Origin: Candidatus Heimdallarchaeota archaeon
GTDB taxonomy: Archaea; Asgardarchaeota; Heimdallarchaeia; Hodarchaeales; Hodarchaeaceae
DNA length: 46,371 nt
Assembly: GCA_020353515.1 (NCBI GenBank)
Contig: CP070695.1
Coordinates: 47,485 to 93,855 of the forward strand
Reading direction: 5' to 3'
A model generated the notes under the pieces. That model searched no databases and was not told the origin of the DNA. It worked only from the letters and a program-made list of their open reading frames with translations. The position numbers were made by a program, and so were the translations under genes. This document shows, piece by piece, positions 2,794 through 46,371 of the stretch. How positions within the stretch are numbered: the stretch's first letter is position 1; each line of letters starts with the position of its first letter.

Positions 2794-3570
2794 TTATATT
2801 GTTTTAATTGGTCCAGATGGATCATTAACTAACAAAATTTCAAAATCAACCGATACTTCTGTACCAGCACCTGCACCCCTAGCTTCTACCCATATATCGG
2901 AAAGAGGGTTTAAAATAAGACCTGGACTAACAGGCTTGTAAATAAATGATCCAAGTATACCATCAAAAAATAATTTTATTCGCTTTGAACATACTGGTGG
3001 TGTTGTTTGATTAAAACTATCTCTAATAAACAGTCGAAAATCAGCAGCCTTTAATGCATCCGATGTGATATGGATACTTGATAAATAGCCTTTTCTATTA
3101 TTTGCAATAGAATATGCTCCATGTTGTGTCTGTCCTTCTCCTGCCTTAATAGTTAACATATCATTTATACTATCTTCATCTTCAAGAATAATATCATCAT
3201 CATTCGCACCCCAGTATGTACCAACGCACGATACGTATGCTCTATAAATTCTCCAAAATCTATTTGTTGTTGATAAACTTGTATTTTCTCCAGATGTAAC
3301 GATATTTTCCGTTGTTTCAATTAAATCTGTATTAATTCCAATAATAGTAACTTCACGAGCCCCAGTACCATTGACAATATCATTAGTACTTCCACCAGCT
3401 TTGATACGAATCCTAACACCAGATGTTGGAAATGCTCCAGATGGTGCAGATGGAGAAATTATTGCCCAGGAACCATTTGGTATTTCGTCATTACGGCCAA
3501 ATTTATGCATAAAAAAATGTTCTGGTATTTTATTCTTCTGTATTTCAACGAAGAAATCTTTGATATCCAT
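2794..3570 (-). CDS. Conserved phage virion-associated protein
   Basis: 258 aa beta-rich; KFGRN...GTGAREVTIIG...GEGQTQ motifs recalled from phage structural regions. Confidence 0.45.
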   Translation of the reverse strand: MDIKDFFVEIQKNKIPEHFFMHKFGRNDEIPNGSWAIISPSAPSGAFPTSGVRIRIKAGGSTNDIVNGTGAREVTIIGINTDLIETTENIVTSGENTSLSTTNRFWRIYRAYVSCVGTYWGANDDDIILEDEDSINDMLTIKAGEGQTQHGAYSIANNRKGYLSSIHITSDALKAADFRLFIRDSFNQTTPPVCSKRIKLFFDGILGSFIYKPVSPGLILNPLSDIWVEARGAGAGTEVSVDFEILLVNDPSGPIKTI

Positions 3571-10297: not shown

Positions 10298-13197
10298 TAT
10301 TTTCCCCCAATTTGAAAAAGATTATTTTCTGGAACTCTTATTAAAAATTCCCCATATTGTTTATCTCCAGTATTAGATGTCATTCTGAAATAATAATGAT
10401 ATTTTCTATAACCAACAAATGGTAAATACTCAGTAGACCATCCCCATCGTCCTGTATTACCAATTGCATAACATCCACTATTAACAATTGGTACTAATAG
10501 ATTCTGTCCATCTCCAATGTTCCATATTTCTATATTAACACTGGTAACAGATACATCAAAAGCACCAATAAGTTGGGGATTATGATCAGCCATTCTAATT
10601 AAGTGATCAATTGTTCTTATTGATGGTAAAAGTTCTTGTCCGCCTATAAATAAATCTGATGATAATATTATACTATCTATGCCGGTATCACCTAGAATAA
10701 ATAAATTATGCGTATCATCAAAACTATCTCTTCCATAAATAAATAAATCTTTTCCACTATAAATATAATCCCCGCCAATATTACCCCAAATAAATAAATT
10801 CTGTGTATTATTGAGACTATTTCCTCCGTGAATAAATAAGTCACCAGATATCTTAATTGATGATAAAGATTCCATAAATAATGTTATATTATTATTAATC
10901 GGATTAGGATATGCGGCCATACCACTCCAATAACCCATAATAGTAAAATCATCTCTCGGCGTACTTGCTTGTTCTGAATATGCAACAACACCAGAATGAG
11001 TATTGACAAGCATATTACAGTTTGATCTACCATAATCTGTTAATGCATCAACTCCACATAAATTAAATTTTCTTTCTAATTGATTTCCAGATGTTTTAAT
11101 TCCGCATATTAAGGCATCATTGAGATCACGATGTCCAAGCATAACATCGGCAACAGCGCCACTCGGTACACCACTAACTTCAACTGTCTCCCATACAGCA
11201 TCATTAATCGGATTAGCTCCATTGGGAATAAATAATTCTGTATAATCCCCCGGAGGTACTGACCAATAACCGACTGGTAATATGTATGACCATTTAGAAT
11301 CATTATATTGTCTGGCAAGTTCTATCGTCCCACTAACACCACTCGTTTTAACACATGTTGTTGCAAATGATGCAGATTGTTCTAATGCCCCTTGACCAGC
11401 ATTGCATTTTAATTTTCTTTCATTAGTTGACCCAACTTCCCTAACACCGACCCATGAACCATTAGCATATTTATGCTCAATCATTACTTCTGCAAAAACA
11501 TCTCCTGGGACACCAAATGAACTTAAATGTGCTGGACCAAAAGAAGTATCTCCCAAATCAGTATCCCACTCTAATCTTCCCATAGTTTCTGTATATTGAG
11601 GACCAAGCCAATATCCAATTAGATAAAAGTCCAGGTCTTCGGCATTTTCAGCAAAACATTCTATTTTACCACCAGATGTTTGAACATGAAGAGTACAGCA
11701 GTTTTCACCATCTTGAGCATCGAAAGTACCACTTTGTAATATATAAAAGCATCTTTCAAGTTGTGATCCTGGTGTACGAACACCGCCAGACCACGAAGCA
11801 TAATGTTTTGTATTGCTGATTAACATATGCGCAACTATACTAGCACCAGTAAGATCTGATGGAATATAATCACTTAAGTCGAGGTCGACCCATGATCCAC
11901 TAGTTGGAAGATTAAATTTTCTCCATTCTTCAACATAATGTGTAGTATAATCTTGTTTCCATGTTTGAAGAAATAGATCGACCTGACCATATGCTGGTAA
12001 CTGAGTAAATCCGGCCACACATATTCCAGATAATGTTTGATTAAAAGGAACATAACATAGTGCAAAGTTATTAGTATCAAAAGTAGTTTGTGTCGGCCCA
12101 TATATATGTGAAGTTTCTTCAATTTCATCAAATTCATATTCGTTACTTAATATTATCGAAGTTCCATCTATAGTTGCTATTTTAGAATTTGCATAGCAAA
12201 CATATCTATATGGAGGACCAATAAATTTATTATAAGCATATGATATTATAGTATGTGAACTATCAGTACCTGGCAGTACTGAAACAGAACATGAAACCAC
12301 ATTATCATCATTAGATGTAGTAAAAATTAATGGTTCTTCAAGTGTTATAGTAGATCCGTCGATAGTCCCTATTCTAATCGAATTATTAATGGCTGGAATC
12401 TGATTATAATGAGCGATAATAAACCTTGATTCATCTAGACTTGCTAATGATATTGCTCCCGCAGCTTTTGGATAGTAATTATTTTCTATATCACAAATAG
12501 AACTTATTGTGGTTCCACTAATAGTGCATAGACACAACATATTGTCAACATTAGATGGATGATTACTATGCGCAAGTACAAAACTACTTGGACTAAGTAA
12601 TGTTGCATCAAGAAAAAAAGACGTTGTTGTATGATCATCTACAAATTCGTGTGCATTTCCAAAAGTAATTGTACTACCACTTATCTCACCAATTTTAGCA
12701 GCAGAAACCCATATGTTCCCATGAAACGGACTATAATATATATTATGAAAAAAAACAATGAAACTAGATGGACTAATTGGCATCGTACCAACAACTTCAA
12801 ATCCACTGCCTGGAGCATTAAATTCAATTCCAGAACCAAAGGTAACATCTGTGCCACTAACCGTTCCAAGTCTAACAATATTATGACTATATGGATATAT
12901 ATCATCTACATATTCATACGATAAAATAATACCAGATGAATTTAATGCTGAAATATCAATGGCATGTGAAACATGATCTTCAAAAATAATTTCATCATCA
13001 AAAAATATTTCAGTAGGATTAGATAATGTACCGACTCTAACTCTACCTGGAAAATATGATCCCGATGGAAGACCAGATGATGCTGATTCGTCTGATGAAT
13101 ATGCAACAATAAATTTGGACGAATCAAGTTTGGTACTACATAGATTCTTAGTTCCACTACTATTAATTTCGTACTTATTTCCAAAGATTATGGCCAT
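10297..13197 (-). CDS. Large virion surface protein (propeller-like N-terminus, three GYW-ending domains, LFIxG repeats)
   Basis: 966 aa with visible internal repeats; C-terminal domain paralogous to 13215..13562. Confidence 0.55.
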   Translation of the reverse strand: MAIIFGNKYEINSSGTKNLCSTKLDSSKFIVAYSSDESASSGLPSGSYFPGRVRVGTLSNPTEIFFDDEIIFEDHVSHAIDISALNSSGIILSYEYVDDIYPYSHNIVRLGTVSGTDVTFGSGIEFNAPGSGFEVVGTMPISPSSFIVFFHNIYYSPFHGNIWVSAAKIGEISGSTITFGNAHEFVDDHTTTSFFLDATLLSPSSFVLAHSNHPSNVDNMLCLCTISGTTISSICDIENNYYPKAAGAISLASLDESRFIIAHYNQIPAINNSIRIGTIDGSTITLEEPLIFTTSNDDNVVSCSVSVLPGTDSSHTIISYAYNKFIGPPYRYVCYANSKIATIDGTSIILSNEYEFDEIEETSHIYGPTQTTFDTNNFALCYVPFNQTLSGICVAGFTQLPAYGQVDLFLQTWKQDYTTHYVEEWRKFNLPTSGSWVDLDLSDYIPSDLTGASIVAHMLISNTKHYASWSGGVRTPGSQLERCFYILQSGTFDAQDGENCCTLHVQTSGGKIECFAENAEDLDFYLIGYWLGPQYTETMGRLEWDTDLGDTSFGPAHLSSFGVPGDVFAEVMIEHKYANGSWVGVREVGSTNERKLKCNAGQGALEQSASFATTCVKTSGVSGTIELARQYNDSKWSYILPVGYWSVPPGDYTELFIPNGANPINDAVWETVEVSGVPSGAVADVMLGHRDLNDALICGIKTSGNQLERKFNLCGVDALTDYGRSNCNMLVNTHSGVVAYSEQASTPRDDFTIMGYWSGMAAYPNPINNNITLFMESLSSIKISGDLFIHGGNSLNNTQNLFIWGNIGGDYIYSGKDLFIYGRDSFDDTHNLFILGDTGIDSIILSSDLFIGGQELLPSIRTIDHLIRMADHNPQLIGAFDVSVTSVNIEIWNIGDGQNLLVPIVNSGCYAIGNTGRWGWSTEYLPFVGYRKYHYYFRMTSNTGDKQYGEFLIRVPENNLFQIGGK

Positions 13198-15649: not shown

Positions 15650-17077
15650 TTAATCTTTCTTTTCTTTACGACCACACAATGCTTGTGCTGTTGCCAACCA
15701 TTGATCACCTTTTGATGTTTTACTGTTTATATTCAAATCAGCATCTTCTTCTACTTCTACACAATCAAGAGATGCTTCTGACAACTCTACATCACCTTTC
15801 TTATTATCCCCAGCATATTTAAGAATTAAAGCAAATGTTTCATCTGTCATTTCACGTACTTCGGCCAATGTGGCATCCTCGTTTTCAACCTTTTTAACTT
15901 CCAAAAGCTTAACCAAACGATCATGGGCAATCTGATCTTTTTTAATTTTATTTAGTTCAGATTCCGCCTTTTCAGTACGCTCAGTTATTTTTGTCAAGCT
16001 TTTATTCAATTCATCTCTTTCTACTTTAATAGCATCAATCTCCTTAGACGCTTTACTAAGACTGTTTGTTAGTTCATCAATCTCAGTTTTGAAAGTAGTA
16101 ATCTGATCTTCATAATCATTATTATTACTTTTCTTAAATTCAGCAATTTCTTCTTGCAACTTAGTTAATTCTTCGTCCTTTTTAACCAACTCAGCTTGAG
16201 CATCCTGTAATTTAGTCTTCATTTCATTAACCTGATTTTCATCCACGTCCACTACACCTCCTTCCAAAAATTCACTTACTTTAGCTGTTACAAAATTACT
16301 AGATTTTATATTCTGATTGGCAGCTACTTTAATAATAGATTCTGGATTAGCAGGTACATCAACGATGCCCTGAGCACCAAAAATAATATCTCTTAAAATT
16401 CTGCCTATTTGATATTCCTGATATTTACCATTCCCACCATAAGCAACCAGGTGTTTAGTGAGAAATGCAGTTTCGTTTGTGCGCTCAACAACCTTGATTT
16501 CATTAGTTTTAGGATTGATAAATCCATAATCAAAATTTGGAAACCAAGCTTCCATGGAAACGAATATTTCATCAGCCTGAGCTTTTGAAATAATTTCATC
16601 AATTCTGGACATTAATCCTGGAAATTGTTTATATAATACACCAGCCACTTCAATATCAAATTTATCTGGAAGTTTTTTATTATCAAGAATTTCATTTCCA
16701 TCTTTATCTAGTACTCTACTTTGTACAATATGACCTAAAATTTGATTAGCTTGATGATTATCATTAATTGGTTTATGTAGGGGGGTCAATCTAGCCTTCC
16801 ATACTTCTTCTGGCAAAAATATATCATCATTAAGATTCCATCCAGTGCTAACCAAAATTGCGACAAGTAATGCCAAATCTGGTTGTTCTTGTCCAAGCAA
16901 TTCTTCAACTGATGTTACAGTCGCAGATGTAGGAAATAAATTCTCAATTGGCATACCATCAAAATATTTCTTCAAATCACTTATCCTAGCTTTCGCTGTT
17001 ACGATAGCAGATGATCCATCTTTATTGTTTAAAGAAAAATTAATATTATCTTTTATTTCAGCAGGATAAATACGCAT
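15650..17077 (-). CDS. Prohead protease-scaffold fusion
   Basis: Likely start MRIYP at 17077; GWNLNDD..HKPINDNH..ILGHI..VSMEAW..FGAQGIVDVPANPES protease-like domain followed by an acidic coiled coil. Confidence 0.7.
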   Translation of the reverse strand: MRIYPAEIKDNINFSLNNKDGSSAIVTAKARISDLKKYFDGMPIENLFPTSATVTSVEELLGQEQPDLALLVAILVSTGWNLNDDIFLPEEVWKARLTPLHKPINDNHQANQILGHIVQSRVLDKDGNEILDNKKLPDKFDIEVAGVLYKQFPGLMSRIDEIISKAQADEIFVSMEAWFPNFDYGFINPKTNEIKVVERTNETAFLTKHLVAYGGNGKYQEYQIGRILRDIIFGAQGIVDVPANPESIIKVAANQNIKSSNFVTAKVSEFLEGGVVDVDENQVNEMKTKLQDAQAELVKKDEELTKLQEEIAEFKKSNNNDYEDQITTFKTEIDELTNSLSKASKEIDAIKVERDELNKSLTKITERTEKAESELNKIKKDQIAHDRLVKLLEVKKVENEDATLAEVREMTDETFALILKYAGDNKKGDVELSEASLDCVEVEEDADLNINSKTSKGDQWLATAQALCGRKEKKD

Positions 17078-17161
17078 ATAATTAACCCCCATCATATGAT
17101 TTATACACAATTATAATATTAAAATACATCTAAAAAAAGAACATTCATTAATTAGATTAAT

Positions 17162-17482
17162 TTATTTTTTATTGGCTTTAATAAAATTAATTATATCAAC
17201 TTTTGCCTTATCGTCATCATAGACAATCTTAGAAGCCAGTCCTTCATCACCCAATTCTTTAACAGCATTAGTAGCTATATCTATAGAAGATGGTAAATAG
17301 AACGATCTTCTTTCCATCATTCCATTAACATCAATTTCTCTAATATATGAAAAATCAATTTCTTCTCTTCCATCAAATATATATTTACCAATATTAAATT
17401 CATTTGCCGGAATTAATATTCCATCAATGGTCATAACCGCCTGTCTACTTTTAGTGTCTAGAGATACATTAACAATAGCCAT
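17162..17482 (-). CDS. Hypothetical head-module protein
   Basis: 106 aa ORF with RBS AGGAGG. Confidence 0.5.
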   Translation of the reverse strand: MAIVNVSLDTKSRQAVMTIDGILIPANEFNIGKYIFDGREEIDFSYIREIDVNGMMERRSFYLPSSIDIATNAVKELGDEGLASKIVYDDDKAKVDIINFIKANKK

Positions 17483-17875: not shown

Positions 17876-20005
17876 CTACCTCTTTCGATTTAAATTAATC
17901 CACGCCAAAACAGTAAGATTTCTACGTTCTCTAATATTCGGTTCTCTATTTGCATAAGCAATAAAATCAGATTTTAATTTATCAAATATTTTCTGCATAT
18001 AAATATCTTGTCCAACAATGGAGTTCAATCTCTCATTAATAACATTATTATTAACAGTATCACTTGGTAATAAAACTGATAAAATTCCCCTTTTAACTAA
18101 TTCAAGTTGTTCTCTCTGGGACTTAGTAAGTAATTTCATATTTTTAATATTATTATATTCAAGATATTTATTATCTATAAATTTATCAATAGAATCTAAT
18201 AATGTATTTCCAATAGTTTGTAAAACAGAAAAAGTATGTGGAGTCCTTTCATCTCTTGGCGCAGTATCTTTTGTTGATGGTGGTCTGCCTGGGGAATTAT
18301 CTCCTTCATCTGTGGGTTGATCTCCAAGTGGATTATCTCCACCATTATTATCAGTAGTTGTTTTTGGAAGATCACTATGTCTATTTAAACCCTGTTTAAC
18401 TTTCTCTACTTGAATAGCAAGGTCTGTTTGTTTTTCCATAACAGAAAATGGGCGATTATACGGATTGGATTTTTCAAGTATACCTGGATCATTTTCTCTA
18501 ATTTGCTGTTCTGATTTAAGCCTTTCTAATTCTATCATATAATTAACACCAAAAACTTCAGCAACTTTCTCCGATGATATAATTCCTCTGTCTAGTAATT
18601 GTATCATCAATTGTTTTTCAGCAGCCTCATCCCTTAAAGACATAGTGCCAAAATTAATAGCTGGAATTTGTTTAAATCCCATTGCATCTGCAACCAATCT
18701 TAATTCGTATTGCATCCACCGAATAGCCCTGCCCCTCACATATTCAAGTCTTTCTACCAAAGTTTTAAGTTGTACAAAAGCGGATTGAGCATTACGTGTA
18801 CCGAGATCTTGTCCGCCTATTAATGAATCAGGAATTCCTAAACCGCGTACAATATCCGCATTAACACCAACATATTTATCTGGTCCAAGAATTTTATCTA
18901 CTGGGGGATATTCAACCTGTAAATCTATCATATCGTCCCAAACCAGGTCCATAACTCCCCCACCAATATTATGCTGTAAAATATCAATTAATTTATCAAC
19001 AATGGCTGGTGATGGCATAATCTGTTGATCAGATTTTCCCAATTTCCACAAACGAATAACGTTAATAACACCATCTAATGCTGCCATGTCAGCTAATCTC
19101 ATTTTCTCCTTAAACATTATATCTTCGAGTACCCCATAGAGAAATGGTGTTCCCCAATCTTCCCAATCATCCTTTTTGTAATAATCAACATAAATCTTAT
19201 TCATATCCAACGCAATTGTGTTACTTCCATGCTTAACCCCCATAACTATCTCTGGAGGTAATTTTTCAACAAAGTCTTTTTCTGCTATTGTTTGGGGATT
19301 TCTTATTGAATTAGCAAGCGAAGTTGGAATTCTTATACCTAACGAATCTGAGCCAAAAAATCTTCCAACTTCACCACCTATTTTTTCTACAATGGCTGGA
19401 GACAAAAAGATATATTTCCATGGAATAACTCTTTTATCAATACGTTTTGAGGGAATATTAATTTTTTCTGGAGGATCGGCAACTTTGGTTTCATCAACTA
19501 CACCAATTAATCGAACACCCTTTGTCATTTCCTTAGCAACTGGCTTCGGCAAAAAAGCATTCTTACGTCTAACAATAACATTCGCATCTCTCATTAAAAG
19601 TTTCATATAATCATGAGCCCTACCTGATAAATCAACTTTTTTGGCCCATTTCCGATAAAATCTTTCTTGAGTCTTAATCGGATGCTGTAACTCTAAACCT
19701 TCTGCTGCGAAATCGGTCATAAGGTCAATAATATTTCTAACCATACCAACCTTGCGATAGACGGCTTGACAACCTAAAATGATATCAACATGTTTTTGGG
19801 GTAATTTATCGGCAGGACGATAACTGTCATAATCGTAACGATTGTGTCCGGCTCTCAAGTTAATATTTGTGGCAGTTGCATGCTTAATTCCTCCTTGAGT
19901 TGAACATATATCTGGTAAAGTATATTCATCAAGATTTTTATCACACTTGACATATAGACTAGGAATAAGAGGTTGAGATTTAGGACTATTTATTTGTTTT
20001 GGCAT
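17876..20005 (-). CDS. Portal protein
   Basis: 709 aa directly after TerL; YRKVGMVRNIIDLM, KKDDWEDWGTPFL, LGIPDSLIGG; acidic/Pro-rich tail. Confidence 0.75.
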   Translation of the reverse strand: MPKQINSPKSQPLIPSLYVKCDKNLDEYTLPDICSTQGGIKHATATNINLRAGHNRYDYDSYRPADKLPQKHVDIILGCQAVYRKVGMVRNIIDLMTDFAAEGLELQHPIKTQERFYRKWAKKVDLSGRAHDYMKLLMRDANVIVRRKNAFLPKPVAKEMTKGVRLIGVVDETKVADPPEKINIPSKRIDKRVIPWKYIFLSPAIVEKIGGEVGRFFGSDSLGIRIPTSLANSIRNPQTIAEKDFVEKLPPEIVMGVKHGSNTIALDMNKIYVDYYKKDDWEDWGTPFLYGVLEDIMFKEKMRLADMAALDGVINVIRLWKLGKSDQQIMPSPAIVDKLIDILQHNIGGGVMDLVWDDMIDLQVEYPPVDKILGPDKYVGVNADIVRGLGIPDSLIGGQDLGTRNAQSAFVQLKTLVERLEYVRGRAIRWMQYELRLVADAMGFKQIPAINFGTMSLRDEAAEKQLMIQLLDRGIISSEKVAEVFGVNYMIELERLKSEQQIRENDPGILEKSNPYNRPFSVMEKQTDLAIQVEKVKQGLNRHSDLPKTTTDNNGGDNPLGDQPTDEGDNSPGRPPSTKDTAPRDERTPHTFSVLQTIGNTLLDSIDKFIDNKYLEYNNIKNMKLLTKSQREQLELVKRGILSVLLPSDTVNNNVINERLNSIVGQDIYMQKIFDKLKSDFIAYANREPNIRERRNLTVLAWINLNRKR

Positions 20006-20055: not shown

Positions 20056-23000
20056 TTAAATATGTTTACCGCGCTTAATAGCTCTAAAAATATCCCCAGT
20101 TTGAGCATGTTGAATATTTTTCATTCTTCCCACACCAGGTCCTCTATACATTGGTTCTTGTTTATTTGGTTTTATTCTCTTTTTTATGTTGCCAGCGACA
20201 TCATCATAATCTATGTTAACTATCGGTGCAATTTCTGTGTCATAAATATATTTATGTGCTAAAAGTAATGCAGTATAACGGTCTTTTTTTAATCTACCCT
20301 TTTTAACACGTCCCTCAACTGTCCCCGGCTGTACTCCCCGTGGAGTATCAAATCTTTCTTTCCCAGTTGGGGTTTCACTCATATGGATAGTTGTCATTTC
20401 ATTTTTCAATTCTTCTATATTTAAAACATTATCTTCATAGGTATCAAATATAATACCAGAAGCTTTTTCTATTTCAATAGCAGAATACATTTTAACACTA
20501 TCGAATGCTGGAAATAATAAAGTACGTGTTTCAAGATTTTTATGCAATACAATATTTGCAATTCTATTAAATTCACTACTCTGTGCTATAAGATGTAATA
20601 TGTGACGACCATCCACAAGACCATCTGTTGGCTTAACAATATCCTGTTCTATAATTTCATAAATCGGAAAATCCCCATTAGATATATCCATCATTTTTTT
20701 ATTAGTTAACATTTCAGATATAGCATAGCCACCACCCTGACTGTCCATCTCAATACGCACAGGATTGAATAATTGAACTAATTCTCTAATTTTAGTACAA
20801 CAATATGCGTAATAATCCTCGCTAGTAATCAATCCCTGTTTTTTTCGTTTAGCAAATTCTGCCTTATTTACAGACCAACCATAAACGACCCTATAATGAT
20901 GTTGTCTAATTTCTACGATAATAATAGCAAAATTATCTCTTTCAGCAGCCGGATCAATACCCATTACATACTTACCATTTGGCATGCCTTTCATTAACGG
21001 GGTAAAAGTAACTTCACCATCTGGTGTCATAATTGGTTTATTTGGTCCAACAGTGCACGATTCTATTAAAGTTCTTGGATAAAATCCATCAGAATCACGA
21101 ACAAAAATGGCGCCATATTCCATTAAAAATAAGTTACGAGGCAAGGTAGCTTTGGCGTTAGCTAATTGTTTTGGTTCTAATAAACCATCAGGTAAATGGG
21201 TATATGGAATACGAATTACAGCATAATCTCTATAATCAAAATTATCTGGAATTAAATGTTCTCCACCAAAAATATTGGATATCTTTTCTATGTTTCCTTT
21301 ACTAGATACAATGTCTTTCCACATTTGATATCGTCTAGCAAAATGATTAAATGCATAATATGCCGTTCCAGAGTATATAATTTGATTACCCTTTGAAGAA
21401 TTAATGTCCAAAACTAATTTAGACATAACATCTTTCGGAATATTCATTTTTTTTAATTGTTTCTCAAAAGCAATCCTCTTAGCTTCTTCCACCGGGGTTT
21501 TGGAAGTAGAAGCAAAACCCCTAACAACAATATCAAAAACATCTTCAGGAATACTGGCAAATTCATCTGCAATAACAGTGTTGGCCCGAAACCCGCGTAT
21601 TTTTGTGTTATGACTATAAAAGCCATTGGCACAATATTCATGCCCATCTGGAATATGTACATCGAAAGTAACACATTCATCATCTTCTATGGAGATAATT
21701 TTATCATAATAAATATTAGGATCGGCAAGACGACGAATAGATTTAATGCGTGGATCATCTATTTCTCCATATACTCTAAGAAAATGATCTACAAGAACTC
21801 TACTAGCAGTAATTTTCTCCTTTAATCTGGCAGCACAAACTGGAACACAATTTCCAGTACCACGTTTTGCCCTGTAATTTTCCGCAATGTTAATCATATC
21901 CGGCAATATGTCTGGAATAGAATCATTCTGATTCATCCATCTCTTCTTTCGACCAATGCCTTCAAGTAATTTATCTTGTTTTCTTTTAAGTCTAAACCCT
22001 ATCTCTTTGGCAAAAACTAGAACATCGGTCCCAGTAATGGAAAGTTCATAGCATTCTTCCCATTTTTCATTTCTCTTTCGAGATTTAACATGCGAAACAA
22101 TACCATAATGAAGTAATATATATTGTAATTGTCTAACCAATTCTTTGCTGGTGTTGGTAAAACCAACCATTATTGTTGTACCACCATGTTTATCTTGAAC
22201 AACCCTTGTGTGACCATCTGTGTCAAAAAGACCAGAAATAAATGCAGATGTTACATTACGCGAAGAACTTAGAATGGTTGATGGAAATTGTTTGTCCTTA
22301 GTTTTTAGGTGATTTAAAGATATACCAAATCTATCGCATAAATCAACTTGATGCAATTTGCCCCTCATCACATATTTAGTTTTGTCCGATGGTATCTGTT
22401 TGAAATTTCCCAATATATTAACTGCTGATGATAATTCCAAGTCATTAGTTCTAAAGGTAGTTTCATAGGGTTGAGTAAAACTACCATCACCTATTAATAG
22501 CCCTATTGCATAAGCCTGTTCTTCGGTAATGTCGTTATTTCCATTATGCCATCTAATAGATTTGTCTAATAAAATTCTATCACCAATTTTTATTTCATCC
22601 ATTCTAGACCAAATTATATTACTATTTCTAACAATCTTTAATTTATGATTTGGTGTGGCATTAAATTCAAACCCATAATGCGTTTTGATTTTTTTTGTCT
22701 TTGATTTTCCATTGCAATAGGATTCATCACTCAATCTGAATTTACTATTTCCCCAAACTTTTTTGTATCTATTAATTATAGTTTTATTAGTCTGATTAGG
22801 CTTTTGATCATCAGATATTCTTCCAAATTTATCCTGATATGTAACACAAGTTAAAGCTTCACTGCACCCATCTCCCATCGGCAATGCATATATAATACTA
22901 TCACCCAATCTAAAATAACATAAATCAACATTTTGTCGTGGTCCAGCCTTTTTCCCTCCACCAACTATATTACGTAACATTCTAGAGTTATTCCAAATAT

Positions 23001-23412
23001 TTTCTATATAACCAAAAACTAATTTAGCTTGACGTAATCCAGCACCAACAATAACAACTTTGGTTCCAGGATCAAACATTGCTCTAAGAATAGCGTAAAC
23101 AGCTAGGATATAACTTTTACTTCCGCCACGAGATGCAATTAACATAGGAAACGGAGTTTTCCATAATGTTTGTAAAATAGCTATTTGAATAGGGAAAAGA
23201 TTTATTCCCAAAATAACCTTTGTTGTCCAGCCAATGTTATCAACATTAAGCATATGATTAATTACAGCTTCATCTAATGGAGTTTTTGATTGTTTAAAAT
23301 CTGTAAATATATGCTTATCTATATTTGGGACATATTCTCTATATGGAAATAAATGAATATATTTGCCCTGATCTCCATATAATAAATCATCTATTAATTT
23401 ACTATAATCCAA
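20056..23412 (-). CDS. terL: Terminase large subunit with intein
   Basis: Walker A-like ASRGGSKS, Walker B VIADEF, nuclease GIDPA and KKDRYTA; probable TTG start at 23412 after GAGGA (track start 23487). Confidence 0.9.
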   Translation of the reverse strand: MDYSKLIDDLLYGDQGKYIHLFPYREYVPNIDKHIFTDFKQSKTPLDEAVINHMLNVDNIGWTTKVILGINLFPIQIAILQTLWKTPFPMLIASRGGSKSYILAVYAILRAMFDPGTKVVIVGAGLRQAKLVFGYIENIWNNSRMLRNIVGGGKKAGPRQNVDLCYFRLGDSIIYALPMGDGCSEALTCVTYQDKFGRISDDQKPNQTNKTIINRYKKVWGNSKFRLSDESYCNGKSKTKKIKTHYGFEFNATPNHKLKIVRNSNIIWSRMDEIKIGDRILLDKSIRWHNGNNDITEEQAYAIGLLIGDGSFTQPYETTFRTNDLELSSAVNILGNFKQIPSDKTKYVMRGKLHQVDLCDRFGISLNHLKTKDKQFPSTILSSSRNVTSAFISGLFDTDGHTRVVQDKHGGTTIMVGFTNTSKELVRQLQYILLHYGIVSHVKSRKRNEKWEECYELSITGTDVLVFAKEIGFRLKRKQDKLLEGIGRKKRWMNQNDSIPDILPDMINIAENYRAKRGTGNCVPVCAARLKEKITASRVLVDHFLRVYGEIDDPRIKSIRRLADPNIYYDKIISIEDDECVTFDVHIPDGHEYCANGFYSHNTKIRGFRANTVIADEFASIPEDVFDIVVRGFASTSKTPVEEAKRIAFEKQLKKMNIPKDVMSKLVLDINSSKGNQIIYSGTAYYAFNHFARRYQMWKDIVSSKGNIEKISNIFGGEHLIPDNFDYRDYAVIRIPYTHLPDGLLEPKQLANAKATLPRNLFLMEYGAIFVRDSDGFYPRTLIESCTVGPNKPIMTPDGEVTFTPLMKGMPNGKYVMGIDPAAERDNFAIIIVEIRQHHYRVVYGWSVNKAEFAKRKKQGLITSEDYYAYCCTKIRELVQLFNPVRIEMDSQGGGYAISEMLTNKKMMDISNGDFPIYEIIEQDIVKPTDGLVDGRHILHLIAQSSEFNRIANIVLHKNLETRTLLFPAFDSVKMYSAIEIEKASGIIFDTYEDNVLNIEELKNEMTTIHMSETPTGKERFDTPRGVQPGTVEGRVKKGRLKKDRYTALLLAHKYIYDTEIAPIVNIDYDDVAGNIKKRIKPNKQEPMYRGPGVGRMKNIQHAQTGDIFRAIKRGKHI
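21607..22866 (-). mobile_element. Intein with LAGLIDADG homing endonuclease (420 aa)
   Basis: GDG|CSEALT ... YCANGFYSHN|TKIRG; blocks AIGLLIGDGS and FISGLFDTDG. Confidence 0.9.
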
Positions 23413-23947
23413 AATAATCCTCTTCCATTTTCTTTGAATATGATTTTTGAATCCAACGGCCCTTTTCTTTCCTAATAACCTCTTCAAATATCATTTGGGC
23501 AATTTTTTGTCCACACGATCCAACTGGAATGATATGCACACCGTATTTAACAGATAATGACATGAGCCATCTAATTAAAGATTTACCTGGCACATTCTTG
23601 GAAAATTGTGGTGGAGATAATTCCATAATATCTGGATTGAATGAAGATTCAATAATAACATACGAATATTTTATTTTGGACATTCTATCCATTTCTTCCT
23701 CAAACAATTGTCGCTTATTTTTACTATAATTTCCCCAAAGTTCAGAAAAACCAAATTTACGTTCTATGGCTAGAATATCTGTATAGCCAACAATACTATA
23801 ATCGCCAGTTTCAATAGTATCTATTATAGTACCCTTGCATCGAGGTGGACGATAATCTGGCGCATGTTCATTAAACCACCACCCATGTCCCTTTTGCTCC
23901 CTGGTATCACGAATAACTGTATAAGTCGGAAGTACAAGTCTAGGCAT
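23402..23947 (-). CDS. ERCC4/XPF-family nuclease
   Basis: DTREQ..GDYS..IERK catalytic pattern. Confidence 0.8.
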   Translation of the reverse strand: MPRLVLPTYTVIRDTREQKGHGWWFNEHAPDYRPPRCKGTIIDTIETGDYSIVGYTDILAIERKFGFSELWGNYSKNKRQLFEEEMDRMSKIKYSYVIIESSFNPDIMELSPPQFSKNVPGKSLIRWLMSLSVKYGVHIIPVGSCGQKIAQMIFEEVIRKEKGRWIQKSYSKKMEEDYFGL

Positions 23948-35980: not shown

Positions 35981-37216
35981 TTATCTAGACACTTTAACTT
36001 TAGATATTGGTCTGCGTAATGATTCAATACTGATACCTGATCGCAAAGCAGTTACAGCACCAACCGCCTCCATATAATTACCAACTACAATAGCATTTAC
36101 ATAATTAGTACAATCTATACTTCCTATTTCTAAATTATCATCAACAGCAATAATAGGAATATCTCTCTGTTGCGCTGCTAACATTGGGACACCTAAACAT
36201 CTCCTTGGAATAACCAAACAGGATACATCAGGGCTAGAGTTAATGATTTGTGGTGCTCGATGTAAACCTTTCAGAATACAAGGCAAATATGTACGAGAAA
36301 CTGTTTCCGCTGCACATCGTGGATCAACAATACCGAAATCAATTTGTTCAACTTCCTGCGATTCCATCATTGGGGCATGCGCACAAGGTACCTGAAAACA
36401 ATGGGATATTGCATGTGTTAACATTGCCTCAACACCACCCCATGGATTTACTCCACCATTCCGATAGTAATAATCACGAACCTCAGCAGCAATTGTAGTT
36501 AATGATGTTATTGCCACAGCATCATAAATATTTTTACGATTATGGAGTATGTCAAATAACTCTTCCATCCCTTCAATAGTACCCGCTGCTCGACCTCCAC
36601 TTGACCAACCAGTTTTCATAGTAAATGGATTTTTTAGAACTACTATCTCTGGGCAATTTAATCCATAAGTAACTCTAGCAGCATTAACAACATTGATAGC
36701 AGCATCAATATAAATTGGATCGGCAGAACCGTCTATAATAACCAGTACACGATTTTGTCTAACTTCTTGTAAACCAATATTACCGAGTAGATATTGTGTC
36801 AATGAATATCCTTCAGTATACAAGGTATTTTCTGTCATTTCGTTAATATCTGAGGCATTAACAACATTAGGGTGAGTTACAAGTCTATCACACACGGAAG
36901 CCATTAATCTAGCAGTAGCACCACCATCCCCAGCATGACCACCCACAGAGGCACCTAAACCAGTGGGAATAATCAAAGCTACCCTAAATTTATCATCATT
37001 TCTAAATTTTTCTGACATATTCATAGAATAAGTGCTTGGATATAAATCGCAATTAATTCCACGAATAACATTGATACTACAATAAAATTTATCATCTTTA
37101 ATTTTTTCTACAACAAATCTAATAAGTACCTCATTATTATCATTCCATAAACGAACACCAAGCATAGATAATTCAGAAAGACAATTTAAAACAACGGATC
37201 GTTCTATAACTTGCAT
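35981..37216 (-). CDS. DUF3326 family protein
   Basis: IIPTGLGASVGGHAGDG, LVTHPNVVNASD, GGVNPWGGVEAMLTH..PCAHAP, NYMEAVG. Confidence 0.75.
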   Translation of the reverse strand: MQVIERSVVLNCLSELSMLGVRLWNDNNEVLIRFVVEKIKDDKFYCSINVIRGINCDLYPSTYSMNMSEKFRNDDKFRVALIIPTGLGASVGGHAGDGGATARLMASVCDRLVTHPNVVNASDINEMTENTLYTEGYSLTQYLLGNIGLQEVRQNRVLVIIDGSADPIYIDAAINVVNAARVTYGLNCPEIVVLKNPFTMKTGWSSGGRAAGTIEGMEELFDILHNRKNIYDAVAITSLTTIAAEVRDYYYRNGGVNPWGGVEAMLTHAISHCFQVPCAHAPMMESQEVEQIDFGIVDPRCAAETVSRTYLPCILKGLHRAPQIINSSPDVSCLVIPRRCLGVPMLAAQQRDIPIIAVDDNLEIGSIDCTNYVNAIVVGNYMEAVGAVTALRSGISIESLRRPISKVKVSR

Positions 37217-43814: not shown

Positions 43815-44420
43815 TTATCGTGTTGTTTCATATATAGTATTTACAGTTTTCATATGTAACGATTTTAGAAAAGAATTTCTCCATTTGCGGTATAAATCAT
43901 ATAAATCTTGACACTGCCCTTTACAGCTACTTCTGGATATCAATCGGTCAAATCCTTCTGTGCAAAAATTATATGCATACATTTGCGATTGAGTAAAAAT
44001 TCCAAAATTAATTGATTGAATAATTCTTTTCTTATCAAAGATTCTTAGTTTGCTACTAATAATTTTCCACCAATGATTTGGAGCCCTTTCTCCCCTTGGG
44101 TAATTTGCTAAATCTTCAAAAAATGAGATAACATATTCACATAATTCATTAAACGATAATTGATTTGGGTCAAGTTTATTAAAGGAATTTTTAATCAAAT
44201 TTGATTTAGCGGGACAAGAAAGTGGAGTAGCTGGTTTGTTAATTGTGGTAGTCCTTCTTATTCCCAAGGCTCGTCGCCTGTCTCCTATAGTTCTCGTGTG
44301 CCATGAATATCCTATTACTTCTCGTAGTTTCTGCTGGATATACTTATCCGTTCTACCGTCGTTCGCCATATGTTTTAACATATCCATGGCCAGTTTGTTA
44401 TTTGTTAAATATTGTTTCAT
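43815..44420 (-). CDS. HTH-domain protein paralogous to the N-terminus of the putative TerS
   Basis: TDKYIQQKL..YSWHTRTIGDRRRALGI versus TDKEIQQRL..YKWNIGTISRQRRAMGI. Confidence 0.65.
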   Translation of the reverse strand: MKQYLTNNKLAMDMLKHMANDGRTDKYIQQKLREVIGYSWHTRTIGDRRRALGIRRTTTINKPATPLSCPAKSNLIKNSFNKLDPNQLSFNELCEYVISFFEDLANYPRGERAPNHWWKIISSKLRIFDKKRIIQSINFGIFTQSQMYAYNFCTEGFDRLISRSSCKGQCQDLYDLYRKWRNSFLKSLHMKTVNTIYETTR

Positions 44421-44786
44421 TATAAATCTTCCTTATTTCTTACATGTTTTATAGCAACAAAACAAGACATCCATAATATTATATAAGAAGGTGGGCAAGA
44501 TGTTTTTGAAGAAATTGAGAAAGTGGGCGAAGTGTATAAAAAAAGGATATCCTAAATTTATGCGGGGGTGAAGAAATTGGGCCGGTTGTGATTGAACCCC
44601 CCCGAGTTATCGGACCTCCCCGAGTTATCGGACCAAAACATATTATACCCACTCCCCTTATCGGACTACCCAGGTTATCGGACTAAAATTGGCTCTGAGC
44701 AAATTATCGGACCTATTTGATATTACTCCAGAGAATGCCCACGAAACTTCCCGAATTATCGGACGAATCTTTTTTTTCTTTTTTCC

Positions 44787-44815
44787 TTGCTTCCTTGCCC
44801 GAGGTATCCTACAAT
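44787..44815 (+). promoter_or_regulatory. Sigma70-type early promoter
   Basis: TTGCTT(44787-92)-17 bp-TACAAT(44810-15) with an upstream T-rich UP-like tract. Confidence 0.65.
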
Positions 44816-44857
44816 ATAGGTGTAGGCAATAGGGCCTACATTATGGGGAGCAGAGAA

Positions 44858-44968
44858 ATGAAACTTATCGGACTTATCTTCGGACTGGCAATTGGGGCAT
44901 CGGTTATCGGACAACTGCTTTCGGTTTTGGCTTGTGTTTTTCATGGCCTATCTTCAGTGGGGCTTTAA
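44858..44968 (+). CDS. Small hydrophobic peptide (36 aa)
   Basis: MKLIGLIFGLAIGASVIGQLLSVLACVFHGLSSVGL after GGGGAG. Confidence 0.5.
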   Translation: MKLIGLIFGLAIGASVIGQLLSVLACVFHGLSSVGL

Positions 44969-44986
44969 TAGCAAGGGGCGATAACT

Positions 44987-45175
44987 ATGAATATCAAGGC
45001 TGGCGACATTGTGACAACGACATTCTCGGACGAATACTTCGTGGTTGAAGAGGTTTGGTCCGATAAAGAATTCCTTGCAATCGGTGGCTTGGTTATCCAA
45101 ATATCGGACGTTGAAGAAGTTTTGGATTCTGAGCAGATAGCCGACATTTTATTGGACCGCGATCTTTCGTGGTGA
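44987..45175 (+). CDS. Small early protein (SH3-like)
   Basis: RBS AAGGGG; MNIKAGDIV..FVVEEV. Confidence 0.6.
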   Translation: MNIKAGDIVTTTFSDEYFVVEEVWSDKEFLAIGGLVIQISDVEEVLDSEQIADILLDRDLSW

Positions 45176-45185
45176 GGTGATTAAA

Positions 45186-45422
45186 ATGAAGTACACACGG
45201 ATAGCTTATCGGACTAACAAATCCCATAGAAGCTATGCTTCAATACCACACCTTTGGTTATCAGACTTTCTGGATTGGTTGGAGCTATCGGACGCTGAGG
45301 TTATCACTACTGTATCTGTTGGGGAACAACCATTATCGGCCTTTTCCGCACCGAGCGATTGGCCAAGTTATCGGAACTGCGAGTTGTACACTCGTACTGT
45401 TTTTCTTGTCAAGGAGCGATAA
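45186..45422 (+). CDS. Hypothetical early protein
   Basis: RBS GAGGTG upstream of ATG 45186. Confidence 0.55.
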   Translation: MKYTRIAYRTNKSHRSYASIPHLWLSDFLDWLELSDAEVITTVSVGEQPLSAFSAPSDWPSYRNCELYTRTVFLVKER

Positions 45423-45423
45423 A

Positions 45424-45672
45424 ATGTTCGGCAAAGCGACACTTGAAATCCCACGTTCCGATAATGGAACGTTGAAGGTCTGCGGTTTATCGGACGAATT
45501 GGCCATGTGCTACGGCAGAGTTATCGGTAGGACGTTATCGGAACAAGATGGATACGTTGTGGTGACGCTTGAATCCGGTTTGGTCAAGGTTATCGGATAT
45601 GATACCCTATTCGACCGACTAACTATCGGACGTTTAGTTCCGAATTATCGGAACACCAAAAAGGAGAACTAA
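45424..45672 (+). CDS. Hypothetical early protein
   Basis: RBS AAGGAG; start MFGK at 45424 rather than track start 45235. Confidence 0.6.
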   Translation: MFGKATLEIPRSDNGTLKVCGLSDELAMCYGRVIGRTLSEQDGYVVVTLESGLVKVIGYDTLFDRLTIGRLVPNYRNTKKEN

Positions 45673-45674
45673 CC

Positions 45675-45764
45675 ATGTTATCGGTCTTTCTCGTGTGTTG
45701 TGCAATGGTAGTTATCGGAATCGTGATCTTCGTGGTGAGACTGAAAGAATTGGATGGCCTATAA
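45675..45764 (+). CDS. 29-aa membrane peptide
   Basis: RBS AAGGAG; MLSVFLVCCAMVVIGIVIFVVRLKELDGL; TAATG coupling to next ORF. Confidence 0.5.
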   Translation: MLSVFLVCCAMVVIGIVIFVVRLKELDGL

Positions 45765-45892
45765 TGTTCCGATGGTTACAACAACTTATCAGACGTTGGA
45801 TGGAGCGACGTTATCGGACAAGGAAGTTAAACCAAGATTATAGGCAGTATCGCCAAAACAAAGAGGCACTTGAAAAAGGGGATTCGTTATGA
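45764..45892 (+). CDS. Small basic protein
   Basis: MFRWLQQLIRRW...; TAATG and ATGA overlaps with neighbours. Confidence 0.5.
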   Translation: MFRWLQQLIRRWMERRYRTRKLNQDYRQYRQNKEALEKGDSL

Positions 45893-46326
45893 GCCGAAAG
45901 AAAAGGCCGGTTATCGGACAGACGGGTAAAACAGTACTTTCTAAAGCCGTACTGCGTATGAGGTTCCGCAGGAAAGGTATTAAGTACCGATATTATCGGG
46001 CTGGTTCGGGATGGGTTGCCTATGTTTGCGGACCTTTTCACAGCCGATATTATGGCGTTTCTGCTATGGGGTTTTGTGGTCCGGTAACTACTGACAGCGC
46101 AACAGGTATCGTGAAACAGTTATCGGACAAGCAGCGCGACGCTATAGCTAAGGATCGGGCTAAAGTGGCGCTGAAAAAAACACTCGCTAACAATTTTTCA
46201 CGCATAGTGAAACTGCGCAACATGCTGTATTCGGACGTGGACGAGGCCGATAATGTGGGGAACGTGGACCTGCGCTTATTGGACGAAGGCGCAAGGAACG
46301 TTCCGATAACGGAGCAGGGAAAATGA
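45889..46326 (+). CDS. Basic hypothetical early protein
   Basis: 145 aa; RBS AGGGGA; ATGA overlaps on both ends. Confidence 0.6.
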   Translation: MSRKKRPVIGQTGKTVLSKAVLRMRFRRKGIKYRYYRAGSGWVAYVCGPFHSRYYGVSAMGFCGPVTTDSATGIVKQLSDKQRDAIAKDRAKVALKKTLANNFSRIVKLRNMLYSDVDEADNVGNVDLRLLDEGARNVPITEQGK

Positions 46327-46371
46327 GAATATCGGACGAACAGAGGCGCTGGTGTAGGATTGTAATTTTCG

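Follow-up and report, generated by a model that had tools for sequence, protein, structure and literature searches.

A one-way array of a word matching the XerC arm of dif, written through a small-gene operon of an uncultured phage

What might read a 9-base word that is repeated in the same direction ~45 times through 2.7 kb of small phage genes? The window analysed here (the whole stretch of DNA, 46,371 nucleotides) is a complete contig from an uncultured phage of ~165 kb and stops on the right at an assembly break. From 1 to 44420 every gene lies on the minus strand. At 44421..44606 the GC content climbs from ~31% to 45%, the cumulative GC-skew minimum of the contig falls at this left zone boundary (~44000 in the window), and a plus-strand operon rich in the word TTATCGGAC begins. 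The region is made up of the following features.

43815..44420, minus strand: last gene of the leftward arm (201 aa, from the ORF list), transcribed away from the zone, with no Pfam or PHROG match.
44421..44606, no strand: divergent intergenic region, the left zone boundary by composition profile.
44607..44764, plus strand: non-coding leader array of six exact TTATCGGAC sites spaced by 17-52 bp.
44858..44968, plus strand: hydrophobic ORF (36 aa) with two exact sites and one two-mismatch site.
44987..45175, plus strand: acidic ORF (62 aa) with a homologue in the related phage G001 (7299-7568; tblastx of window 44984-45112 against G001 7541-7413).
45186..45422, plus strand: 78-aa ORF of a family conserved by alignment in the relatives G003, G004 and G006.
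45424..45672, plus strand: 82-aa ORF with the motif in all three frames.
45675..45892, plus strand: two tiny coupled ORFs, 29 aa and hydrophobic (45675-45764) and 42 aa and basic (45764-45892), with a TAATG overlap.
45889..46326, plus strand: 145-aa ORF of the 'GPFHSRxYG ... SDVDEADNVG' family, found by alignment in every zone of the lineage.
46323..46371, plus strand: start of the next ORF, overlapping by ATGA and truncated where the contig stops; the zone itself goes on past this point.
44607..46371, plus strand: the zone as held by the window, with 30 plus and 5 minus sites at no more than one mismatch.

Exact copies of TTATCGGAC number 14 in the window (13 plus, 1 minus), all within the zone. 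The plus strand of 44607-46337 carries 13 exact and 17 one-mismatch copies of the word, where the base composition of the zone itself predicts 0.007 exact and 0.19 one-mismatch sites per strand. At this threshold of one mismatch the interval holds 30 plus and 5 minus sites, or approximately one per 50 bp (binomial p = 2e-5 for the orientation bias), and the remaining 44.5 kb of the window holds none on the plus strand. TATCGG cores are likewise concentrated, with 26 plus and 6 minus copies from 44600 to the window end versus 9 plus and 6 minus in the preceding 44.6 kb; our recount of both words matched the numbers in the original prediction. The plus sites are distributed over the three reading frames as 12, 7 and 5, with six more in non-coding DNA, and within the ORF at 45424-45672 alone they are read as LSD, VIG, LSE, VIG, TIG and YRN. 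Because the sites fill all three frames and two non-coding arrays (the second is described below), the data support the earlier proposal that selection acts on the nucleic acid and not on the zone proteins.

The zone ORFs are nevertheless real genes, as had been proposed: their homologues are conserved and the TAATG/ATGA overlaps at 45764, 45889 and 46323 were confirmed. Their labelling as early genes is plausible. In the 78-aa ORF the motif-encoded YRT and LSD peptides occupy conserved alignment columns, and the 145-aa ORF contains four plus and three reversed sites, several of them at ortholog-conserved columns (VIGQTG, VLSD, RPI). The first two sites of the leader array lie 18 bp apart inside a CCCCGAG-TTATCGGAC repeat, and this opening architecture (PPxVIGPxxVIGP in translation) is kept in G003-G006. 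Pfam and PHROG scans of all zone ORFs returned no family, Rfam and tRNA scans of the zones gave no match, and a scan for sigma-70 promoters and terminators found no excess over shuffled sequence. The 145-aa protein has eight database homologues, all unnamed, and its AF2 model (pLDDT 61) was too poor for a structure search.

The full extent of the zone was recovered from L264, a near-identical contig that carries on 3829 bp past the window end. The full zone is ~2.7 kb long, includes a second non-coding array of ~18 degenerate TTATMGGAC sites (L264 2140-2800), and is closed by a conserved 127-aa gene (L264 3118-3501) whose AF2 model (pLDDT 79) had no Foldseek match at E <= 0.001 and a VIA-align Z never above 3.3. 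The sharp bounds and the polarity of the predicted zone stand, and its right limit is to be revised: position 46371 is the contig end, and the array runs ~0.9 kb further in L264.

Six related phages (with the window phage, lineage A) each contain one equivalent zone of 2.5-4.5 kb with 15-20 sites per kb of the same word, starting abruptly at the point where transcription and GC skew diverge and ending with a few reversed sites at the far end. The GC-skew minimum lies at 154000 in G004, where the zone starts at 155151, and at 7500 in G001, where the zone edge is at 8340. In this lineage 85-95% of sites are on the sense strand, and the reversed copies are themselves conserved (RPI and GSDNA columns). 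The array has been kept while the zone proteins diverged to 35-50% identity, and it shapes the conserved peptides VIGQ, LSD and YRT. The same junction is present in independent contigs and syntenic relatives, so the segment is not a chimeric join. No DNA match of the zone was found in 50,697 phage records, and the best match of the window phage's portal protein, to Bacillus phage G, reaches only 26%. Nor is the word a host-wide signal: outside the window contig, the 4.9-Mb genome binned with the phage contains 10 plus and 12 minus exact copies (~17 expected per strand) and no other cluster, and no arrays were found in 20 relatives or in 399 genomes of the phylum.

Beyond lineage A the same 9-mer, with unrelated flanks, forms irregular arrays in intergenic patches of other phage lineages with GC contents of 30-60%. 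Irregularly spaced loci with at least 8 copies made up 17 of the 119 scanned, versus 4 of 120 for a control word, and arrays using both strands numbered 16 and 0, respectively. In smaller phages the arrays occupy intergenic, often divergent promoter regions; in other lineages the word is found on both strands inside one 300-bp patch, also between co-directional genes; and in lineage B two patches flank 2-3 genes. Arrays coincide with the GC-skew minimum in lineage A and in G029, G032, G039 and G040. The site unit is 9-11 bp, with no longer conserved unit. Different lineages share no protein family encoded within 3 kb of the arrays, as would be expected if the gene for the reader is located elsewhere or belongs to the host. 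The cultured phage YuA, a relative of lineage B, had no such sites in the 50 kb scanned of its 58.7 kb. PF18909 was present in 14 of 28 array-bearing contigs versus 1 of 22 controls; this family (DUF5664) is a dNTP pyrophosphohydrolase, a nucleotide-pool enzyme and not a DNA binder (PMC12884076), and the idea of a Z-genome was dropped as PurZ was not found.

The original prediction recognised the motif from no described system. We find that its reverse complement, GTCCGATAA, is a frequent XerC arm among the dif sites of many bacterial phyla, a match that was spotted after a literature look-up and is hence post hoc. Among GTCCGATAA-N6-TTATG sites in bacterial genomes 63 of 122 had a canonical XerD arm (3.5% expected), thus GTCCGATAA is a real and widespread XerC arm. 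Published dif sites with the same arm include those of Anaeromyxobacter (ACGTCCGATAA), Myxococcus (AGGTCCGATAA) and Syntrophus (GTCCTATAA) (PMC2731167), and the dif arm seen most often in our sample is, when reverse-complemented, the commonest 11-mer of lineage B (TTATCGGACGT). Mismatch tolerance at positions 1-9, determined from 400 lineage-A sites, was 36, 2, 23, 10, 79, 24, 11, 47 and 51: the inner ATA and the C matching arm position 5 are constrained, and changes are tolerated at arm position 7 and in the outer bases, which is also the pattern reported for the XerC arm of dif (PMC2731167). This identity, with its matching tolerance positions, is new here. A full-text literature search for the 9-mer returned mostly primers, with the dif table of PMC2731167 as the only biological match, and found no description of a polar, dense array of dif XerC half-sites in a phage.

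The phage sites are half-sites. Each lineage-A zone has 30-70 of them, unpaired, over kilobases; no inverted partner (XerD) arm across a 6-8 bp centre was found in the window, G001 or G004, and 12 genomes contained no palindromic motif-arm pairs. One dif-like core, GTCCGATAA-N6-TTATG(T/C), is present in every lineage-B array, with a degenerate right arm. Conversely, none of 120 bacterial loci with arm-N6-TTATG held three or more motif copies. No dif with a GTCCGATAA arm was found in the bacterial genus binned with the phage, although the true host may not be the binned organism; two dif candidates of the binned genome were rejected, as they are not conserved in the genus. A Xer-family recombinase of 297-300 aa (236 bits against TIGR02225 XerD) is encoded in all 4 lineage-A contigs that are at least 68% complete; in G004 its gene occupies 16335-17225. 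Neither the window nor the bin's other phage contigs contain a Xer gene, and tyrosine recombinases are missing from most other lineages with arrays.

We tentatively favour, with a probability of roughly 40%, the reading that the zone acts in cis and loads monomers of an Xer-type recombinase unidirectionally, serving as a barrier or silencer and not as a recombination site. The conserved module of this lineage of ~165-kb uncultured phages consists of an operon of small, fast-evolving genes and non-coding flanks with dense TTATNGGAC sites, nearly all of them oriented along transcription, and its reader would be the lineage's own Xer paralogue or host XerC in lineages without one. As the sites lack partner arms they would not recombine. 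Bound monomers would instead form a row of C-clamp proteins, all facing the same way beside the genome divergence point, and this row would act in cis as a polar protein barrier that would allow outward passage along the operon and stop or unload opposing machines, such as SMC-type loop extruders, FtsK-like translocases, forks or antisense RNA polymerase; alternatively, the operon might be silenced in the manner of stoperators. Such an effect has precedents: a half-site bound by one monomer of XerD or Cre is 3-5 times better at stopping FtsK when the outer face of the monomer is met (PMC2800217), and XerD at the dif-like XDS sites is described, in the part of PMC11840125 that cites Karaboja 2021, as unloading Smc-ScpAB, with an artificial XDS array blocking translocation. 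Several observations count against an Xer reader: the Xer gene is missing from the window and from the bin's other phage contigs, most other array-bearing lineages encode no tyrosine recombinase, the binned genus has no dif with a GTCCGATAA arm, and a second common XerC arm forms no phage arrays (below). In addition, E. coli XerC alone binds its own arm weakly (PMC2800217), and the GC-skew minimum, where the arrays are found, resembles an origin and not a terminus. A wider version of this proposal, in which several unrelated phage lineages would carry an 'XDS-like' array in cis, recruiting their own Xer or host XerC to dozens of same-facing half-sites at the arm divergence to stop or unload SMC extruders (Smc-ScpAB, MukBEF, Wadjet/Lamassu-like) or FtsK-like translocases, appears distinctly unlikely, and the involvement of SMC complexes in it is purely conjectural.

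The main competitor, somewhat unlikely in our estimate, holds that the sites are operators, stoperators or iterons for a phage DNA-binding protein unrelated to Xer and that the likeness to dif is coincidence; the arrays would sit at a promoter or origin and would have spread through the lineage-A operon for shut-off, or for origin control by titration or handcuffing. The intergenic, often divergent promoter positions in smaller phages suit this explanation, as do the skew-minimum arrays of lineage A, G029, G032, G039 and G040, the two lineage-B patches placed like iterons around a rep gene, and the co-orientation with transcription that is a hallmark of stoperators (PMC9283540, PMC6550527). 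The conserved 145-aa (basic N-terminus) and 127-aa (helical) zone proteins could also read the sites, but the latter has no fold match suggesting DNA binding. As regards an iteron-type origin, the arrays have the GC-skew minimum as their position, while Pfam and PHROG gave no initiator family at the zone and the lineages have no neighbour gene in common. Iterons and operators change together with the proteins that bind them and vary from replicon to replicon, whereas here an identical 9-mer recurs with no common nearby protein, in a site of just 9-11 bp. Coincidence leaves the match to a real XerC arm, and to its tolerance profile, unexplained.

We consider it improbable that the array is a decoy titrating host XerC in trans, which would block dimer resolution, dif-integrating competitors or an Xer-dependent host function. 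In favour of a decoy, the word occurs naturally as an XerC arm, phage copy number multiplies the tens of sites in each genome, and most lineages are without a recombinase of their own. Titration, however, requires no clustering, single orientation or fixed location at a divergence point; XerC alone binds half-sites weakly, and the XerD arm, being tighter and more conserved, would make the better sponge. A second common XerC arm, TTATGCGAA, gave no phage arrays on a scan, so phages do not exploit host XerC in this way as a rule.

The suggestion in the original prediction of a genome end or first-injected DNA is not supported, since the window stops where the assembly broke off within the zone and the zone of relatives is internal, at the divergence point. 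That the arrays are terminase-binding or end-protection sites in a physical end or packaging region, on first- or last-packaged DNA, is very improbable. Arrays do lie closer to contig ends than the control word (median relative distance 0.34 versus 0.58, Mann-Whitney p = 0.005), three lineage-A assemblies are interrupted within the zone or shortly past it, and in one run the zone contig had 3 times the depth of its neighbours. On the other hand, depth was flat across the boundary in the source run, the breaks may reflect strain variation in a fast-evolving region, the zone is internal in four relatives, the terminase gene (TerL) is 21 kb away, and 30-70 sites over kilobases far exceed any known pac or cos site. 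A terminal overlap test on the window contig was negative.

Least probable of all is action in RNA, with UUAUCGGAC repeats in early transcripts bound or cut by an RNA-binding protein, as the sense-strand excess of lineage A is set against the use of both strands in one 300-bp patch elsewhere (including between co-directional genes), six first sites upstream of the first gene, and conserved reversed copies.

The zone is a clear second, DNA-level code over real genes; that its word turns up again in unrelated phages whose base composition differs widely speaks for a conserved reader, and its XerC-arm identity provides a concrete candidate. If rows of Xer proteins do load on phage DNA, half-site roadblocks for FtsK and SMC unloading sites would extend to viruses, adding a protein-free, sequence-encoded element to phage-host interactions. 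An XDS-like function, if true, would amount to a DNA-encoded counter-measure through coding sequence and a viral, non-recombination use of a dif half-site. If the reader is another protein, the arrays would still be a widespread, unannotated regulatory or replication element at divergence points, often at assembly breaks.

Among known systems, KOPS, Chi and Tus-Ter share an informative orientation with the array, which runs one way from a switch point with few reversed copies at the far end, whereas KOPS and Chi are enriched throughout the genome of the host and the motif is at chance in the binned genome and forms no arrays in the 399 genomes of the phylum. A ParABS centromere is not indicated, as ParA/ParB (PF02195, PF13614) were not found in G003-G006 or in G028 of lineage B. 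Iterons and omega-type heptad arrays, known from origins, promoters and centromeres of plasmids and phages, resemble the arrays of lineages B and C in placing short repeats, both direct and inverted, in control regions between genes, but they are replicon-specific and lie beside the gene of their binder, unlike motif arrays that have no common neighbour gene across lineages.

The stoperators of Cluster A mycobacteriophages (L5, Bxb1) are also short, asymmetric, multi-copy sites along transcription, read by a monomeric two-domain protein that blocks elongation (PMC9283540), and the sites of the plus-strand operon and of the six relatives are similarly asymmetric and co-oriented with transcription. 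Stoperators, however, number ~25-35, are spread genome-wide, mostly between genes, and are specific to an immunity group; the phage array occupies one zone with most sites inside ORFs, uses the same word in unrelated lineages, and is accompanied by no identified repressor in the window. The array also resembles dif and the dif-like attP of IMEX elements (e.g. CTXphi), with a 9-mer and often an 11-mer identical to the XerC arm, the same constrained and free positions and, in lineage B, one arm-N6-TTATG core per array. In contrast to the array of one-way, unpaired half-sites at a skew minimum, dif occurs once, near the terminus, as a 28-bp site made up of two inverted arms. In Bacillus subtilis the XDS sites are likewise of Xer type and function without recombination, and SMC translocation is blocked by an artificial array of them according to the same portion of PMC11840125; XDS are few, chromosomal, confined to the terminus region and read by XerD, whereas the phage array is dense, polar and built from an XerC-type arm.

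The motif counts of the original prediction were exact on recount, and the signal is a genuine, strong and conserved one. Allowing at most one mismatch to the oriented 9-mer (the word), 30 sites lie on the + strand and five on the - strand between window 44607 and 46337 (binomial p = 2e-5 for the orientation bias), against 0.007 exact and 0.19 one-mismatch sites expected per strand from the zone's own composition; the remaining 44.5 kb of the window contain no + strand site at this threshold. Six exact sites occupy a non-coding leader (44607-44764), and the other + sites lie within seven small coupled ORFs, split 12/7/5 among the reading frames. At the left boundary of the zone the GC content climbs from ~31% to 45%, and the cumulative GC-skew minimum of the contig falls at the same boundary.

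The stretch is present in two public sediment runs. A near-identical 5,967-bp contig of one run (L264) begins at window 44234 and extends 3,829 bp past the window end. In L264 the array goes on as a second non-coding stretch with ~18 degenerate TTATMGGAC sites (2140-2800) and ends ahead of a conserved 127-aa gene (3118-3501); the zone is therefore ~2.7 kb long, roughly window 44607 to 47230. The proposal that it marks a genome end does not follow, since the array runs on past the window end, and a chimeric join is contradicted by the same junction in independent contigs, L264 among them, and in syntenic relatives. In the run that yielded L264 (X2), the zone contig (window 44234-46371) had a depth of 16.8 versus 4.5-6.1 for neighbours from the same phage (~3x), and in the likely source run depth across the zone was flat; the raised depth in X2 may reflect co-occurring strains with a common module, or a repeat. 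Past the closing gene of the zone, both L264 (3500-4500) and the G001 locus L128 (4990-5900) carry ~0.9 kb of GC-rich sequence (GC 0.54-0.58) that lacks a long ORF, contains degenerate sites facing either way and matched no Rfam family.

The window is one entire contig of a draft, bin-like genome (G000 47485-93855, with 100-N spacers on both sides), and its DNA is that of a phage with a GC content of 33%. Up to position 44420 every gene is on the - strand, and from ~44850 to the window end every gene is on the + strand. Hallmarks include a portal protein and a large terminase; the genes discussed here are as follows.

Window 20056-23487, - strand: large terminase, 1143 aa, interrupted by an intein that includes a LAGLIDADG homing endonuclease (PF14528, E 3e-18; PF14890, E 3e-11)
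Window 23402-23947, - strand: 181-aa protein with an ERCC4-type nuclease domain, directly upstream of the terminase
Window 35981-37216, - strand: 411-aa protein with a very strong DUF3326 match (E 5e-88)

The terminase owes its length to the intein; the orthologue in the related contig G001 aligns on either side of a gap at window 21606-22867 and appears to be intein-free. The ERCC4-type protein is kept in G001 and G004, and also in G037 and G045, two array-bearing phages of unrelated lineages. DUF3326, a family of unknown function, would not be expected among phage replication or early genes. No close cultured relative was found by comparing the zone DNA with 50,697 phage records or by comparison of the portal protein. 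Two other contigs of the bin (G000 151234-172989 and 235644-246357) are likely further pieces of this phage, because their proteins are 30-68% identical to those of G004 (3.7-10 kb and 21-25 kb). Co-binning of the phage with the bacterium is no proof of a phage-host relationship between them.

Relatives were collected by scanning viral contigs for two copies of the word 5-35 bp apart. This recovered G001 (L079; 46.7 kb, 34% GC), which is syntenic with the window and has structural proteins of 50-70% identity, and five more contigs (G002-G006); CheckV completeness places all six genomes near 165 kb. The equivalent zone anticipated in related phages is present, with the same word, once in each: 2.5-4.5 kb long, with 15-20 sites per kb nearly all in the same orientation. 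Each zone starts abruptly next to a divergent intergenic region, and its far end is formed by one conserved gene for a helical protein (GFGSDNAA motif) together with a GC-rich stretch in which a few sites are reversed; in G004 (96% complete, 160-kb genome) the zone start is the sole strong GC-skew switch. A 145-aa family (GPFHSRxYG ... SDVDEADNVG) retains 35-55% identity across phages of 33-51% GC, and the zone genes are real. Several copies of the word share alignment columns among orthologues, encoding VIGQ, LSD or, reversed, RPI; word and zone proteins have a long history of joint evolution. The predicted DNA-level code overlaid on genes is thus borne out, with the word in all three frames and in the non-coding leader of a zone of conserved genes. 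In lineage A (the window phage and its relatives), all four contigs at least 68% complete encode a full-length Xer-family recombinase, a paralogue since it scores 236 bits against TIGR02225 (XerD), under the equivalog cut-off of 330.

The sole biological context of the 9-mer in a full-text literature search was a table of proteobacterial dif sites, whose XerC-binding arms include those of Anaeromyxobacter (ACGTCCGATAA), Myxococcus (AGGTCCGATAA) and Syntrophus (TTGTCCTATAA) (PMC2731167). Scanning genomes of 185,579 species for GTCCGATAA-N6-TTATG gave at least 122 sites, and a canonical XerD arm (TTATGTTAAAT, TTATGTAAACT or similar) follows in 63 of the 122 listed, against 3.5% expected, which identifies these 63 as true dif sites. 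Among the matches listed, dif sites with this arm occur in Planctomycetota, Acidobacteriota, Myxococcota, Desulfobacterota, Bacteroidota, Ignavibacteria and others, and also in Sphingomonadaceae, Paracoccaceae, Bacillus/Brevibacillus and Corynebacterium. In 283 one-mismatch sites of lineage A the changes fall mostly at position 5 (79), then 9 (51), 8 (47) and 1 (36), with positions 2 (2 changes), 4 (10) and 7 (11) near-invariant; mapped on the XerC arm, constraint falls on the inner ATA and on arm position 5, with variation free at arm position 7 and at the outer bases, the same pattern as in the XerC arm of dif (Carnoy and Roten). The low-GC variant TTATAGGAC, frequent in G001 and in the distal array of the window's zone, corresponds to the arm of Syntrophus type, and the favoured 11-mer of the YuA-like lineage B, TTATCGGACGT, reads on its reverse complement as the dif arm most often met in the sample. 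Each lineage-B genome has one dif-like core, located in the array and comprising GTCCGATAA, a 6-bp spacer and TTATG(T/C).

G028 54979-54997: GTCCGATAA-N6-TTATG(T/C)
G029 55181: the same core
G031 10483-10501: the same core
G033 18743-18761: the same core

An integrase is absent from three of these four phages; by analogy with IMEX elements, it is a possibility that such tailed phages rely on host XerCD to integrate or to resolve multimers.

The dif-arm likeness was noticed post hoc. The window and the second phage fragment (G000 151234-172989) lack a Xer recombinase gene, a tyrosine recombinase is missing from most other array lineages, the genus binned with the phage has no dif of this arm type, and a scan of viral contigs found no arrays of TTATGCGAA, another common XerC arm. 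E. coli XerC by itself binds its own half-site weakly. The bacterial genome carries a dif-like 28-mer (ATTTCGGATAA-N6-TTATGGAAACG) twice, 258 bp apart (G000 938483-938510 and 938741-938768); the pair is not conserved within the genus and may bound a small Xer-dependent module.

Arrays in other phages were scanned with the word read backwards as control, comparing locus structure among the matches listed, for which match totals are uninformative. Among these, at least eight copies at five or more distinct spacings occur at 17 of 119 target loci versus 4 of 120 control loci, and both strands are used at 16 versus none; the sequence flanking the 9-mer is unrelated between copies. Grouped by common proteins, the loci represent several lineages in addition to A: lineage B, related to YuA-like siphoviruses (TerL 53% identical); a third group with small conserved neighbour genes; a group encoding a giant polyvalent protein of up to 3483 aa with an ADP-ribosyltransferase domain (L101 3546-13994; homologues in L015, L076, L108 and others); and single complete genomes (G032, G037, G039, G040, G045). 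A 4-site array adjoins the giant protein, often within 1 kb of the contig end. Smaller phages have 200-400-bp intergenic patches, frequently with one reversed site then a forward run, or with sites pointing outwards from the middle of a divergent promoter region. The sole family common to six lineages genome-wide is the DUF5664 dNTP pyrophosphohydrolase (PF18909), encoded by 14 of the 28 contigs with arrays, including 9 of the 10 near-complete ones, versus 1 of 22 control viral contigs; PurZ was not found in these contigs, and DUF5664 acts on the nucleotide pool rather than binding DNA (PMC12884076). Host-wide, uptake-like frequency, raised in the original prediction, is contradicted by chance-level occurrence of the word in the binned bacterial genome, and 20 relatives and 399 genomes of the phylum contained no array except one tandem repeat.

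The zone sites have no partner arms, which argues against their being recombination sites. When a half-site is occupied by a single monomer of XerD or Cre, FtsK is halted 3-5 times better from the outer than the inner face (PMC2800217), and PMC11840125 reports that XerD bound to dif-like XDS sites unloads Smc-ScpAB and that an artificial XDS array blocks SMC translocation. Every zone site has its inner (TTAT) end facing the zone start and its outer end downstream, so that a row of bound monomers would let machines exit along the operon and obstruct incoming ones. Alternatively, the row could block RNA polymerase, for which stoperators are a precedent (PMC9283540), silencing a potentially toxic early operon. 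Our tentative composite reading (probability about 0.4) is a Xer-type reader combined with a polar barrier or silencer that works in cis.

Somewhat less likely is a reader unrelated to Xer, a phage regulator or initiator for which the sites would serve as operators or iterons: the arrays do sit at promoter regions and at the GC-skew minimum, but the identical word recurs in unrelated lineages with no neighbouring gene in common, and no protein family within 3 kb of the arrays is common to different lineages. A decoy for XerC working in trans is improbable, and a terminus or packaging element slightly more so, even with arrays closer to contig ends than control arrays. A signal working in RNA is the least credible, given arrays on both strands in other lineages. 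A ParABS centromere is unsupported, with PF02195 and PF13614 not found in G003-G006 and G028.

The claim that the motif matches no described system holds in part. For polar phage arrays the claim stands, as we found no description in the literature of such arrays of the dif half-site at kilobase scale, but it fails for the word, which is the already known half-site of dif.
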